From NCBI GenBank assembly GCA_051251855.1, contig JBPOGI010000002.1:704001-768000 (forward strand): a stretch of 64,000 nucleotides of DNA, in the 5' to 3' direction. Positions within the stretch are counted from its first letter, which is position 1, and each line of letters opens with the position of its first letter. Below the pieces are notes generated by a model. It did no database searches. It saw nothing but the letters and a program-made list of their open reading frames with translations, and was not told where the DNA came from. The position numbers and the translations under genes are program-made. Shown here in pieces: positions 7,476 through 14,529 of the stretch. This DNA is from Roseibacillus sp. GTDB taxonomy: Bacteria; Verrucomicrobiota; Verrucomicrobiia; Verrucomicrobiales; Akkermansiaceae.

Positions 7476-7763
7476 GCTGAGGAGGAAACCAGAAATGAGA
7501 GTAGAAATGCGAGCAATAACGAGTGTGAGTCTTATTGGCGCGGGGTTTTAGCCATCAGGGAGAGTAGAAAGTTTCCCAGTAAATCCTCAGGAGTTGTTTT
7601 TCATGTAATTATTTTGTTTTAAGTTGGTTGCGTTCTTTTTGTTGCCTTGTTTGGGCTTTTGGGAAAGCCCTTTCGGTGACCGATCTGTGTTCAATTCTCT
7701 GGAATAGTTGCGGCAACTGACTGATGTGGTAGGTTTTGACTGTTCTTAGATGAACAAACTACA

Positions 7764-8339
7764 ATGAAACTAAAATTCGTATTTACGATGATGGCTGCTA
7801 GCGGTCTCTTCGTTGCGCCTGTTTTTGCTGACCATCATGGTGAGAAAAAGGCTGCAACAGAGGCATCAGCAGAAGGTTCAGTAGCGGCCTACGTGGTCGC
7901 TGCTTCTGGCGGCGGGTGAGGCGCTGCAGGAAAGGTCAGTTCGGCCTTGAAAAGTCAGGAAGGTGTCAAAACCGTCATTCTCTCCGGTCTCCGTGCCACA
8001 GTCATCATGGATGACGGCGCAGCTCTAGATGAAGCGAAGGTGAAAGCCGCCATCAAAGGAAAGAAGATGGAGTTCGTTTCCATGGAGAAGACCCAGATTA
8101 CTCGCCCTGTAGCGGCCTATGAGCTCGTGGTGAGCGGCGCTACATGAGCAATCAAAAATGAAAAGGCCCGTGTGGCCTTGGAAAAATTGGACGGAGTTTC
8201 CGGTGCGTTTGTGAATAACAACATCGCGCTCCACTTCTCAGAGGAAACCGAACTTGATGAGAAGCTTGTTGCTTCTGCTATCAAGGAGTTTGGAATGAAG
8301 GTGAAGAGCACCAAGAAGCTCGAAGCATTGCCATTCTAG
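7764..8339 (+). CDS. Candidate exported selenoprotein with two HMA-like repeats and two in-frame TGA (Sec) codons at 7917-7919 and 8145-8147; 191 aa if both are read through
   Basis: MKLKFVFTMMAASGLFVAPVFA-DHHG...VAAYVVAASGGG*GAAGKVSSALKSQEGV...LDEAKVKAAIK...VAAYELVVSGAT*AIKNEKARVALEKLDGV...LDEKLVASAIK...LPF-TAG; one frame throughout; SECIS-like hairpin after each TGA; terminator after the TAG. Confidence 0.8.
7932..7948 (+). promoter_or_regulatory. SECIS-like hairpin 1
   Basis: AAGGUC-AGUUC-GGCCUU; loop begins 18 nt after UGA 7917-7919; G at loop position 2 followed by U. Confidence 0.7.
8163..8179 (+). promoter_or_regulatory. SECIS-like hairpin 2
   Basis: AAGGCC-CGUGU-GGCCUU; loop begins 21 nt after UGA 8145-8147; G at loop position 2 followed by U. 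Confidence 0.7.
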
Positions 8340-8361: not shown

Positions 8362-8400
8362 GAGAGGCCTGTCGCATCGTGCGGCAGGCCTTTCTTTTTT
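8362..8400 (+). terminator. Intrinsic terminator of the TGA-containing gene
   Basis: GAGAGGCCTGTCGCA-TCG-TGCGGCAGGCCTTTC followed by TTTTTT, 22 nt after TAG 8339. Confidence 0.85.
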
Positions 8401-8443
8401 GGCTCTGTCAGGTTTGGGGAGTGAGAATACGGAGTTGATGTTG

Positions 8444-8553: not shown

Positions 8554-9921
8554 TTACTTGATGGGATGGGATGCCGCCTTGAGGTAGGATTTGGCCTTGG
8601 CGAGAGTTTTTTGGTGTTCCTCTTTTCCTGCGAGGTTGTTTTTTTCGAACGGGTCGGCCTCAAGATTGAAGAGTTCGAGGCTTCCTCCTTTGGCTTTTTT
8701 GTAGGCTTTCCATTTTCCGAAGCGAAGTGCTTGGGAATGAAGGGCTTGCTTTCCGCCGGTGGTGAACTCGATATAAAGATACTCGTGTTCTTCCTGTTCG
8801 CCGTCTTTGGTAAGGGTGGGGAGGAAGGAGAGGCCTGTGTTTTGCTCGGGGATGGGTTGAGCGAGGATCTGAGAGAAGGTGGGGAGGAGGTCGTGAAAGC
8901 CGCTGAGGTGATGGGTGCTGCTGCCTGCTTCAATTTTTCCGGGCCAGCGAGCGAGCATGGGGGACTTGATGCCGCCTTCATGCATGTCGCGTTTGTGGCC
9001 ACGAAGTCCGCCGGTGGAGTTGAAGAAATCGGGATCATGACCGCCTTCTTTGTGGGCGCCGTTGTCGCTAGCGAACATCACGAGGGTGTTGTCGTCGATG
9101 TCGAGCTCTTCGAGCAGGGTCATGATGGCTCCAACTTCATCGTCAAGGTGCTCCATCATGGCGGCGAATCCGGCGATGGGATTGATGACGTCGGGGGTTT
9201 CGTCGAATTCACCGGCTCCATAGCGGCCGATCTTGTTGTCGAATTGAGGGAAGACTCTACGCCACTTTTCATGTAGTTCTTTAGGTGCGTGCATGGCTGC
9301 ATGGGGGATGGCAGTGGGAATATAGCAGAAGAAGGGGGCATCGGATTTGGTGCTGTTAGAAATGAAATCGCGAGCGGCCTCCATGACGATGGGGTTAAGG
9401 TAGGTCTTGCTGTCGAGCGGGATTTCTTTGCCGTTGTGGACGTAGCTGGTGGGGTAGTAGGTGTGAGCGATGAGTTGGCTCTTCCAGCCACAGAATTCGT
9501 CGAAACCGTGGGTGTGAGGGCTTTGTTTTCCAGTCTTGTTAGTGACCCCTAGTCCCCATTTTCCAAAGGCTCCTGTGCGATAGCCGGCGGCCTTGAAGAC
9601 TTCGGGGAGGACCGTGAGTTCTTCGGGGAGGGCAGCTTGGTCTTCGCCGGGGACATTGCCGCGGAGGTAGAGCTGACCTGATTCGATACCCGTCATTAGG
9701 ACGGCGCGGGAGGGGGAGCAGACGGTGTTACCTGAGTAGTGGTTGGTGAACTTCATCCCCTCGGTGGCAAGTCTGTCGATGTGAGGCGTCTCGAATTTTT
9801 CCTGTCCATAGCAGGAGAGATCACCGTAGCCGAGGTCGTCGGCGAGGATGTAGATGATGTTTGGTTTCTCAGCCGAAAAGGCGAGGGTTGGGATAACGAG
9901 TGAGAGAAGAAGGAGCTTCAT
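8554..9921 (-). CDS. Arylsulfatase (formylglycine-dependent)
   Basis: Signal peptide; KPNIIYILADDLGYGD; CSPSR; GKWGLG; SDNG. Confidence 0.92.
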   Translation of the reverse strand: MKLLLLSLVIPTLAFSAEKPNIIYILADDLGYGDLSCYGQEKFETPHIDRLATEGMKFTNHYSGNTVCSPSRAVLMTGIESGQLYLRGNVPGEDQAALPEELTVLPEVFKAAGYRTGAFGKWGLGVTNKTGKQSPHTHGFDEFCGWKSQLIAHTYYPTSYVHNGKEIPLDSKTYLNPIVMEAARDFISNSTKSDAPFFCYIPTAIPHAAMHAPKELHEKWRRVFPQFDNKIGRYGAGEFDETPDVINPIAGFAAMMEHLDDEVGAIMTLLEELDIDDNTLVMFASDNGAHKEGGHDPDFFNSTGGLRGHKRDMHEGGIKSPMLARWPGKIEAGSSTHHLSGFHDLLPTFSQILAQPIPEQNTGLSFLPTLTKDGEQEEHEYLYIEFTTGGKQALHSQALRFGKWKAYKKAKGGSLELFNLEADPFEKNNLAGKEEHQKTLAKAKSYLKAASHPIK

Positions 9922-12941: not shown

Positions 12942-14357
12942 TTAGGGGGCTTTGGCGGGTGGGATATGGTTTTCAGTGAGCAGCTTTTTCATCATTTCTA
13001 GAGCGGGTTGATACTCACTCTCCTCAGCAACGTTCTTCCATTCGTTGGGATCCTTTTCATGGTCATAGAGCTCCATGGAGCCATCGCCATACTCGATGTA
13101 GCGGTAGTGTTGATAACGAAGCGCCTTTCCGCCCTCCTTTCGGTAGGTGAGTGTTGGGTGATCCCAGTCAGCCTTTGGGTTTTCTAAGAGCGGTTTGAGG
13201 CTGCGCCCGACGACCTTGGTGTTGGCTGGGAGACTACAGAGGTCGACCAGAGTGGGGTAGATGTCGATCAGCCCTACCACTTTGTCGCATTGACCCCGGA
13301 ATTTTTCGCCCTGCATGCTGGGCGGGAGCTTGATAATGAGGGGGGAGAGCCCCGAGCGTTCCCAAAGGGTGTGTTTTTGGAAGGTGTTTTTCTCGCCCAT
13401 GTGATAACCATGATCGGACCAAAGAATGACGATGGTGTTTTCGGAGTAGGGGCTTTCTTTGAGAGCCTTGAGAACTTCCCCCACTTTACTGTCGGCGAAA
13501 GTGATACTGGCAAGATAGCTTTGCGCGATGTCTTTCCATCTGTTGTTCTCAAGGGCCCACTCTGTTCGGGGGTAGCCTTCGTTGATGGTTGCCAATGCAG
13601 CTTCTGGCACGTCATCGAGGTCTTCTTTTTGGTAGGGCGGTAGCTTGATGGCTTCGCGATCGTAGAGGTCAAAGTATTTTTGAGGGACATACCAAGGAAC
13701 ATGAGGGCGAAGAAATCCGACCATTAACATAAAAGGTTTATCGTGTTGTTCTTGTAAGCGTTCTACGGCCCAAGTTGCTGCTCGGCTGTCGCTCATACTT
13801 TCCTCGGGTTTTTCCCAGGGACCCCAATCGGTCAGAGTGTTCTGAGAGGGCCACTCGAGCTTGATTTTCTTCCCAGTTTTCTTGTCCCTGAGGTAGTCCC
13901 AGCTTCCGCGTCCACCGGAGAGGTCGAGATTCTCTTTAGGGAGGTGTTTGTGAAGAATTTTTCCGACCGCCATGGTCTTGTAGCCGCCCATTTTCTTCAA
14001 ATAGCCATGGAGGAGTTCTGACCCAAGAGACTGGGCAGTCTTCTCCACAAATTCATCCTCGGCCTGCAGTTTGGGGGAGTTGAGTTGGTGGTAATAGAGA
14101 CCGCTCATCAGACTGGCTCGAGAAGGGCCGCATACAGGATACTGGCAGTAGGCCTTGGAGAACCAAACGCCCTCGCTGGCCAATTGGTCCATGTGAGGCG
14201 TAATGGCCTGTGAGTTGCCAAAATAACCTGCCCAGTCGTTGAGGTCATCGACGGCAATGAACAAGACGTTTGGCCTTTTGGCCGCGTTCGTTTGGAAGGG
14301 AAGGCCTGCGAGTATCAGCAGAGTCAGGAGTCGAAAGTGGGATCTTAGAATTTTCAC
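12942..14357 (-). CDS. Sulfatase (iduronate/choline-sulfatase-like); start probably GTG 14357
   Basis: Signal peptide then RPNVLFIAVDDL, CGPSR, GKILH, PHVP, WSDHGYHMGEK. Confidence 0.88.
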   Translation of the reverse strand: MKILRSHFRLLTLLILAGLPFQTNAAKRPNVLFIAVDDLNDWAGYFGNSQAITPHMDQLASEGVWFSKAYCQYPVCGPSRASLMSGLYYHQLNSPKLQAEDEFVEKTAQSLGSELLHGYLKKMGGYKTMAVGKILHKHLPKENLDLSGGRGSWDYLRDKKTGKKIKLEWPSQNTLTDWGPWEKPEESMSDSRAATWAVERLQEQHDKPFMLMVGFLRPHVPWYVPQKYFDLYDREAIKLPPYQKEDLDDVPEAALATINEGYPRTEWALENNRWKDIAQSYLASITFADSKVGEVLKALKESPYSENTIVILWSDHGYHMGEKNTFQKHTLWERSGLSPLIIKLPPSMQGEKFRGQCDKVVGLIDIYPTLVDLCSLPANTKVVGRSLKPLLENPKADWDHPTLTYRKEGGKALRYQHYRYIEYGDGSMELYDHEKDPNEWKNVAEESEYQPALEMMKKLLTENHIPPAKAP

Positions 14358-14369
14358 TAGAGTATGGTG

Positions 14370-14423
14370 GCTGCTGGTTTTTCTCGCGCCATTCGGTCCG
14401 GCGATGATGATGGCGGTGGGCAT
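14370..14423 (-). pseudogene. Short remnant resembling the N-terminus of a zeta-toxin-like/COG4185 P-loop ATPase
   Basis: MPTAIIIAGPNGARKTSS resembles IIIAGPNGAGKT with a broken Walker A; in frame upstream of the sulfatase. Confidence 0.45.
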
Positions 14424-14529
14424 TGTGATCTCGAACTGCTGGTGGGGTGGCTTGCAAAGCCACGCTTCTAATCGCCGCATTTGAAGACCCCGCCTTGGCG
14501 AGGGATCCTTCGAAGCTAAGGTCTTGAAA

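Follow-up and report, generated by a model that had tools for sequence, protein, structure and literature searches.

The window, that is the whole stretch of DNA analysed (64,000 nucleotides (nt) of Roseibacillus sp., assembly GCA_051251855.1, contig JBPOGI010000002.1, positions 704,001 to 768,000), contains on its forward strand a gene whose mRNA is very probably read through two in-frame UGA codons as selenocysteine (Sec). The gene and the features in and around it are listed in Table 1. The frame of 191 codons has TGA at codons 52 and 128 as its sole interruptions, and a list of open reading frames made with the standard code yields fragments only, at 7764-7919 (51 residues), 7947-8147 (66 residues) and 8172-8339 (55 residues). 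Alignment of the two halves of the read-through protein resulted in 30% identity over 74 residues (E = 1e-4), with both TGA codons in one column. The read-through protein contains no Cys. An initial annotation, made from the letters of the window, had described this single frame, two repeats with the TGAs at equal positions, the lack of Cys and a terminator after the TAG stop; all four were recovered, the last as a terminator-like hairpin the arms of which (8362-8394) start 23 nt past the TAG.

Table 1. Features of the double-UGA gene and its surroundings, with positions in the window
Feature	Position	Strand	Basis
PF03773 permease gene, divergently transcribed, with P-V-C-E-C-A motif and His-rich loop	6471..7475	-	Pfam ArsP_1, 174.5 bits
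Promoter-like boxes: -35-like hexamer 7708-7713, 16-nt spacer, extended -10-like TGnTAGGTT 7727-7735	7708..7735	+	alignment
Putative selenoprotein coding sequence, ATG start to TAG stop, 191 codons	7764..8339	+	sequence reading, homologues
Predicted signal peptide, residues 1-22, predicted cut after VFA, mature N-terminus DHH	7764..7829	+	by eye
Predicted HMA-fold domain 1, residues 38-113, motif SGGGU, Sec52 in beta1-alpha1 loop	7875..8102	+	AlphaFold2, Pfam, Foldseek
UGA codon 52, very probably read as Sec	7917..7919	+	TGA in 18/18 genome and 16/16 metagenome loci
Predicted selenocysteine insertion sequence (SECIS) hairpin 1, 6-bp stem 7932-7937/7943-7948, loop 7938-7942 A-G-U-U-C	7932..7948	+	covariation, spacing
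Predicted HMA-fold domain 2, residues 114-191, motif SGATU, Sec128 in beta1-alpha1 loop	8103..8336	+	AlphaFold2, profile alignment
UGA codon 128, very probably read as Sec	8145..8147	+	TGA in 18/18 genome and 16/16 metagenome loci
Predicted SECIS hairpin 2, 6-bp stem 8163-8168/8174-8179, loop 8169-8173 C-G-U-G-U	8163..8179	+	covariation, spacing
TAG stop codon	8337..8339	+	sequence reading
Intrinsic-terminator-like hairpin, 15 pairs (9 G-C), followed by a T run	8362..8404	+	terminator scan

The read-through protein was searched against 60 related genomes, and a homologue was found in 17 of them, including 7 of the 8 genomes of the same genus. Each of the 17 homologues contains exactly two in-frame TGAs, at identities from 82% down to 32%. 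The window and the homologues were combined in an 18-sequence alignment, where both Sec columns are TGA in every row and belong to the six invariant columns. Scanning of metagenome contigs added 16 confirmed loci (13 distinct by sequence), again with TGA at both sites in each, and the retention of TGA spans down to about 30% identity. Both sites are thus occupied by TGA, and never by TAA or TAG, in 34/34 loci, which bears out the earlier statement that two chance nonsense mutations are an unlikely origin of these codons. In an even sample of other genomes of the phylum, none of 400 had a family member at E <=1e-5. The distribution appears patchy, covering part of the order and marine-type metagenomes.

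Selection on the coding sequence was assessed by the ratio of non-synonymous to synonymous substitutions (dN/dS) in seven genomes of the genus (21 pairs; 0.58-0.70 synonymous differences per site). The median dN/dS was 0.21 before the first UGA, 0.19 between the UGAs and 0.13 after the second UGA. As the ratio is low in each segment, all three are under protein-level selection in one frame. A 401-nt contig of a 91%-identical relative has both TGAs unchanged, with 26 of its 37 differences at third codon positions. In an independent public DNA sample, a contig that spans the first TGA is letter-identical to the window where the two overlap. The initial annotation had named sequencing errors and absence from close relatives as arguments against Sec; the TGAs are present in all close relatives carrying the gene. 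Among the public-sample contigs at 99% identity, which cover the gene in part, no run bridges the whole gene. A metatranscriptome contig (X19) covers 7771-7985, which is no proof of transcription; another contig (X18) may stem from RNA.

The genome encodes the machinery for Sec insertion, with selA (455.6 bits), selB (331.1 bits), selD (375.9 bits) and tRNA-Sec (63.9 bits) all above the curated cut-offs. Its selD is itself a selenoprotein gene with one in-frame TGA (motif ...SSCAGU...). selA was found in all 17 relatives with the gene and in 12 of the 43 relatives without it; 31 relatives had no match to selA, and the gene was found in none of these. TGA is in use as a stop codon: it ends 364 of the 1595 open frames of at least 400 codons in this genome, and the family gene itself terminates with TGA in 4 of the 18 genome loci (L030, L035, L036, L039) and in 5 of the 16 metagenome loci (L049, L054, L056, L057, L059). 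In these nine loci a third UGA, located a few codons past the conserved C-terminus, is the true stop, and they provide an internal control for SECIS-dependent decoding.

Both UGAs are followed by a short hairpin. In the window, hairpin 1 starts 12 nt after its UGA with a gap of 18 nt between UGA and loop, and hairpin 2 starts 15 nt after its UGA with a gap of 21 nt. The minimal SECIS of E. coli is a 17-nt stem-loop located 11 nt after the UGA, and the values found here are near to these. Throughout the family the hairpins have a stem of 6-7 bp and a 5-nt loop of the form N-G-U/G-N-N. In the 18 genomes, 91.3% of the cells of hairpin 1 are paired, with 12 cells and 3 of 7 pairs changed on both sides; in hairpin 2, 96.6% of the cells are paired and 5 of 7 pairs have changed on both sides. 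Column shuffles matched neither the observed paired percentage nor the covariation score (0/500 for each hairpin), and for hairpin 2 the result was 0/500 on all five measures. When the 3' partner was slid by one column, pairing fell to 47-64% in both helices. With all 36 elements aligned together, the loop G is invariant (36/36), and U follows it in at least 90% of them.

For spacing and energy, genome and metagenome sequences gave 60 distinct UGA contexts. At the first UGA the distance to the start of the loop is 18-19 nt in 30/30 contexts, and at the second it is 21-22 nt in 29/30. In the model of bacterial SECIS elements given in a review (PMC13188914), the loop has 3-9 nt and carries G within its first two positions, as a rule with G or U as the next base, the distance between UGA and loop is 16-37 nt, and the minimum free energy is -7.5 kcal/mol or lower. 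The loop, the G and the spacing conform to this model in 59 of the 60 contexts. The UGA of the genome's own selD (contig C7, 93151, L010) is followed by a longer stem-loop with the apical loop G-G-U-C-U, which is of the same loop type.

Both hairpins are situated inside the coding sequence, within the stretch that encodes helix alpha1 of the respective domain. In L029 a Lys-to-Val codon is paired with a Leu-to-Met codon, so that the stem changes are non-synonymous on both sides, and in several lineages residues of helix alpha1 were forced to change by compensatory substitutions in the stem. Because the changes on both stem sides are non-synonymous, the RNA pairing constrains the protein sequence. 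The terminator scan also caught hairpin 2 on the minus strand. Comparative evidence shows that each UGA has its own predicted SECIS hairpin within the coding sequence. The initial proposal that UGA stands for Sec is therefore supported by the conservation of TGA, the covarying hairpins, which the initial annotation had not noticed, the sel genes with tRNA-Sec, and the Cys-containing homologues described below.

A structural model of the read-through protein was calculated with AlphaFold2 from the 18-row alignment. The mean predicted local distance difference test score (pLDDT) was 81.6, with values below 50 for residues 1-36 and blocks of 88-97 in residues 41-190. The model consists of two beta-alpha-beta-beta-alpha-beta units, each spanning one TGA. 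Domain 1 (pLDDT about 90) comprises E39-48, H54-63, E68-74, E77-82, H90-99 and E103-113, and domain 2 comprises E117-124, H129-140, E145-150, E153-158, H166-174 and E179-185 (E, strand; H, helix). Comparison to the PDB with Foldseek placed the tandem HMA domains of Bacillus subtilis CopA on top (2rml and 1p6t; probability 1.00), followed by ATP7B domains and then by CopZ 6ff2 (TM 0.79, root-mean-square deviation (rmsd) 2.0, 67 columns) and Atx1. Matches that include both domains have a large rmsd, so the orientation of the domains to each other differs from that in CopA or is uncertain.

The family profile was also aligned with the HMA domains of B. subtilis CopA (E 3.9e-9). In this alignment Sec128 takes the first Cys position of GMTCAAC, whereas the second Cys position is held by another residue that is not Cys. 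The loops that hold Sec are rich in Gly (SGGGU in domain 1; SGATU, GTGU or GVGU in domain 2) and contain one Sec and no second thiol. Pfam HMA (PF00403) was matched at E <=1 by 13 of the 18 family members (best E 1.2e-7); in the window protein the match comprises residues 55-100 (E 0.0067). Structure prediction and profile alignment show that each domain would present one Sec where MxCxxC has its first Cys, and the protein is probably a divergent member of the HMA fold with a rebuilt metal motif. The initial annotation had assigned the TGAs to the first metal-binding Cys, had noted that the second Cys of CxxC is lacking, and had expected two ferredoxin-like HMA folds from structure prediction; the CopA alignment and the model agree with each of these points. 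The evidence from gene, RNA and model taken together, we consider it highly probable that the gene product is an exported HMA-fold selenoprotein with two Sec residues.

Protein collections were searched with the family profile (1.84 billion representatives), resulting in 407 matches at E <=0.001, 52 at <=1e-10 and 14 at <=1e-30. Cys takes the place of Sec in a few homologues. P0017 is full-length with Cys at both sites, one per domain and without CxxC (29% identity, E 2e-13), and P0015, which starts just past site 1, carries Cys at site 2. The homologues thus have TGA and, rarely, Cys at codons 52 and 128, one of the outcomes that the initial annotation had looked for. More distant matches are canonical GMTCxxC proteins, the first Cys of which stands in both Sec columns. 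Among the best 150 of the 407 matches, the full-length family members have W at both Sec positions (16 rows, and one row with a misaligned W). Of 94 short matches, 56 end one residue before Sec 2, 23 represent the C-terminal piece and 2 end before Sec 1. The 56 fragments that stop right before site 2 show that standard gene callers encountered a stop codon at this site. When 5.8 billion proteins were searched by words, only 4 relatives of near length emerged, none of them with a name or a Pfam domain, and in the collections searched the family is present only as fragments or W/W forms, all nameless.

Two further observations were made in these alignments. P0022 has three GMT-W-G-x-x-C repeats, and P0116 has G-G-W-G and V-S-W-Q-S-S-C; both are HMA-like with W in the metal motif and may represent further uncatalogued Sec-containing HMA families of the U-x-x-x-C type. 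In a subclade formed by L053-L055, L057, L059 and L035, an extra Cys (L-E-G-C-(S/A)-D-A-Y-V) follows helix alpha1 of domain 2, where the other members have G-V/I.

The region upstream of the coding sequence was compared between four species of the genus (window, L024, L026 and L027). The upstream alignment has an invariant GTTGCGG followed by TG.TAG, and this conserved block may be a promoter. The sole site reported by a promoter-consensus scan was rejected, as it overlaps the ATG. An inverted-repeat check of the upstream region revealed no inverted repeat, operator-like or other. The gene is monocistronic, standing alone between the promoter-like block and the terminator.

As judged by eye, the N-terminus resembles a signal peptide, with MKLK, a hydrophobic run and then VFA/DHH, and the homologues share the layout of n-region, h-region and AxA. 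In L036 (1360-1980), P0009 and P0010, a lipobox-like ...(A/T)(I/S)SC is found instead of the AxA signal-peptidase site; these orthologues would be membrane-anchored lipoproteins, with the lipidated Cys as their only Cys. By reading of the sequences, 7 of 18 orthologues have a mature N-terminus of the form D-x-H. Such an N-terminus would fit the Cu(II)/Ni(II) 'ATCUN' pattern. A weak match elsewhere in the same genome (L022:1495-2034, C1, about 817.2 kb) was rejected; it encodes a fasciclin protein which is similar only in the signal peptide and N-terminal linker. The mature N-terminus of this protein (AFA/DHH-KE-KK, with an acidic, Ala-rich linker) is close to that of the selenoprotein, and a fasciclin gene is also located beside the orthologue in L031. 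All orthologues share a conserved C-terminus of Pro or Leu and an aromatic residue (LPF, LPY, KPF, LLF; window 8328-8336), which is modelled with lower confidence. A partner protein or a protease could dock at this C-terminus.

Adjacency of the divergently transcribed permease gene to the selenoprotein gene is confined to the window and to L024, L026, L027 and L042; in other loci the neighbouring genes vary and point to no pathway. The loop of the permease comprises about 30 residues, is rich in His, Asp and Cys and looks cytoplasmic. The nearest NCBIfam model is NF033936 (SO_0444 Cu/Zn efflux), with 90.4 bits at a cut-off of 300; NF040736 (SaoE) gave 52 bits at a cut-off of 325. According to the Haft preprint, some members of the SO_0444/SaoE families are themselves selenoproteins and have USC where the motif aligns. 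None of the loci examined has merA, merT or merR next to the gene. Convergent sulfatase genes are located downstream in the window (8554-9921 and 12942-14480, both on the minus strand), L026, L027, L028 and L033; a sulfatase gene lies upstream in L053, and in L035 a gene with an FGE-sulfatase domain and ankyrin (L035:118-1347) follows on the same strand. Aerobic formylglycine-generating enzymes use copper. No conclusion was drawn from the sulfatase neighbours, since genomes of this group contain many sulfatase genes and the arrangement may be due to chance. In L032, L045, L048 and L050 the gene has a DAO/methylase gene and RidA/DUF4190 genes as recurrent neighbours, apparently a case of simple synteny. 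A weak NF041115 match beside selA (L061) gave nothing clear.

The gene would be expressed as follows. SelB with Sec-tRNA would bind each hairpin as the ribosome arrives at the UGA. The signal peptide would export the protein to the periplasm, where it would be lipid-anchored in the orthologues with a lipobox. The periplasmic selenolates could then bind a soft metal ion, most likely Cu(I), with Hg(II), Ag(I) and Cd(II) as further candidates; one metal might be bound per domain with outside ligands, or one be shared by both Sec. Cu(I) is favoured because of the usual clients of the HMA fold and the efflux-type neighbour. The protein may act as a periplasmic buffer or chaperone and, in the genus, could work for the His-rich efflux-type permease encoded next to it. 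A single Sec domain with a SECIS of its own was probably duplicated in tandem, giving rise to both domains and both SECIS elements. As a whole, a monocistronic gene for an exported, double-Sec HMA-fold protein with a role in soft-metal handling is very likely the best explanation of the locus. For metal binding taken separately as the role of the protein, our confidence is slightly better than even. More speculative is a cysteine-free bis-selenolate, in which both Sec would form one interdomain site, either as a linear Se-metal-Se arrangement with Cu(I) or Hg(II) or as a switchable diselenide; this form of the site we regard as unlikely. The initial annotation had likewise suggested that both Sec might bind one soft metal or form a diselenide.

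Several results weigh against this interpretation. At the level of the RNA, the limit of -7.5 kcal/mol was reached by only 37 of the 60 bare hairpins, and hairpin 1 of the window is weak (-5.6 kcal/mol; hairpin 2, -7.6 kcal/mol). Folding of the 60 nt that follow each UGA was not better than that of shuffled sequences (z -0.38 for both). At gathering scores, Rfam gave 0 matches in the window, where ARAGORN likewise reported 0 tRNAs. Because the energies and z values are weak, the case for the SECIS elements is built on position, conserved loop and covariation, and not on stability. Sec insertion in E. coli is inefficient, and two UGAs in a short message should cost yield. The genomes compared are related and not independent, so the co-occurrence with selA overstates its own weight; it is supportive but does not have the standing of a statistical test. 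The W residues at the Sec sites in the protein collections were assumed to be TGA translated as Trp by gene callers. With respect to the fold, the window protein scores 17.2 bits against Pfam HMA, below the gathering threshold of 24.8 bits, and MxCxxC is not kept: Met is replaced by G, A or T, and the second Cys by A, K, T and others. In the genome and metagenome loci examined, no gene neighbourhood is conserved beyond the genus. As there is no wider neighbourhood and no operator, the metal role is based on the analogy of fold and on a neighbour limited to the genus.

The strongest competing explanation retains the exported double-Sec protein and assigns Sec to redox or selenium chemistry instead of metal holding. 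The Sec residues would form a reversible interdomain diselenide, or a selenenylsulfide with a substrate, and the protein could serve as a periplasmic oxidoreductase, as a scavenger of peroxide or hypohalite, or as a selenium or sulfur carrier. A redox function is typical of the known bacterial selenoproteins, most of which are of this kind (PMC13188914). Both the canonical two-Cys metal site and the Met of the motif have been lost, and in a mature protein without Cys the pair of Sec residues is the sole possible internal redox couple. An AhpC/TSA gene is located beside the gene in L037, and a pyridine-nucleotide disulfide oxidoreductase gene beside that in L040. However, no conserved redox partner adjoins the gene, the sole recurrent neighbour in the genus is a metal-transporter-like permease, and the HMA fold is known for metal handling. 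The potential of a diselenide is moreover very low, which would make recycling hard in an oxidising periplasm. A purely redox role is accordingly considered unlikely, and metal binding by the two Sec domains is preferred.

Much less probable is a reading of UGA as Trp or Cys by a changed code or by read-through independent of SECIS elements. This explanation would account directly for the 16 full-length database homologues recorded with W at both sites, and reassignment of UGA to Trp has been reported for some Verrucomicrobiota (abstract of PMC13462651). A UGA-to-Trp code is nevertheless excluded on account of the full Sec machinery, the restriction of the gene to relatives bearing selA, and the use of TGA as a stop in long frames of the genome and in nine loci of the family itself. 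Furthermore, covarying hairpins lie at a fixed distance from both UGAs, aligned homologues have Cys and not Trp at the sites, and more than half of the short fragments (56/94) end right before site 2. The short pieces from standard ORF calling might suggest a pseudogene in decay, an error of assembly or three short ORFs without relation to each other, with truncated or no products; the probability of this is negligible in view of the exclusive use of TGA in 34/34 loci across several families of the order and metagenomes, the purifying selection in all three segments, the independent DNA sample identical over the first TGA, and a confident model with two complete domains each spanning a TGA.

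The family was compared with catalogued selenoproteins. A review of May 2026 tabulates 119 prokaryotic selenoprotein families (PMC13188914). The whole table of 119 families contains no secreted protein in which two tandem HMA domains have one Sec each; the nearest entries are NF041115, a cation ATPase with UxxC, MerT-type proteins and MbdU. The family is not represented in NCBIfam 20.0, and MerP TIGR02052 gave 13.6 bits at a cut-off of 92.55. In all four supplements of the GOS selenoproteome the family-specific motifs are absent, and matches to GGGUG are SelD only. A 'MerP' selenoprotein of the GOS study was rejected as a member, since it is an unrelated short read with a UC motif. Full-text searches of the literature on selenoproteins with HMA, MerP, CopZ or Verrucomicrobia yielded no description of the family. 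As far as searched, this is an uncatalogued selenoprotein family conserved in marine Verrucomicrobia; a cultured strain, Roseibacillus persicicus KCTC 12988, has an orthologue with 81% identity (L041).

Standard annotation misses or fragments the gene, and a family model would repair the annotation of Roseibacillus and related marine Verrucomicrobia. HMA sites normally contain two Cys, whereas a lone Sec per domain is found here, without a partner thiol and in a protein with predicted export to the periplasm. The role of a lone selenolate at a copper-chaperone site, the sharing of one metal by two domains, and the efficiency with which bacteria decode two UGAs 76 codons apart can now be tested. 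The gene is also a clean natural example of a SECIS duplicated together with its protein domain. If the bis-selenolate site should prove true, it would be a natural all-selenium metal site of aerobic marine bacteria that remains functional in an oxidising periplasm. It would be produced from a single short mRNA, the two internal SECIS elements of which were duplicated along with the domain.

Among selenoproteins, the best match in NCBIfam 20.0 was NF041115 (UxxU_metal_bind), with 22.8 bits at a cut-off of 95 (12.9 bits in the genome search) and weak matches in 17 of the 18 family members. NF041115 is likewise a small HMA-type selenoprotein with two Sec. It is, however, a single domain of 74 positions with UxxU in one motif, whereas the present protein has one partnerless Sec in each domain (U-x-x-(A/K/T)). 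MbdU (NF045648), a double-selenoprotein family of 468 positions with CU motifs, which the present protein lacks, was matched by none of the 18 members at E <=1 and had no match in the genome; NF045683 was weakly matched by 3 of the 18 members (best E 0.0099). Selenoproteins of the MbdU/NF045683 type resemble the present protein in having Sec at a presumed soft-metal site, some of them with two Sec, as tabulated in PMC13188914. Unlike the present protein, which has no Cys, they keep Cys beside or near Sec.

The HMA metallochaperones CopZ, Atx1 and MerP have the same fold as predicted for the domains described here, and in both cases the reactive residue is located in the beta1-alpha1 loop. Two tandem HMA domains also form the N-terminus of B. 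subtilis CopA (2rml, 1p6t), and MerP is exported, as is predicted for the present protein. The differences concern the metal site and the genetic setting. Canonical HMA proteins use two Cys in MxCxxC, whereas each domain has one Sec, no second Cys and no Met. The protein encoded in the window would be secreted as a free-standing protein and belongs neither to an ATPase nor to a mer or cop operon.

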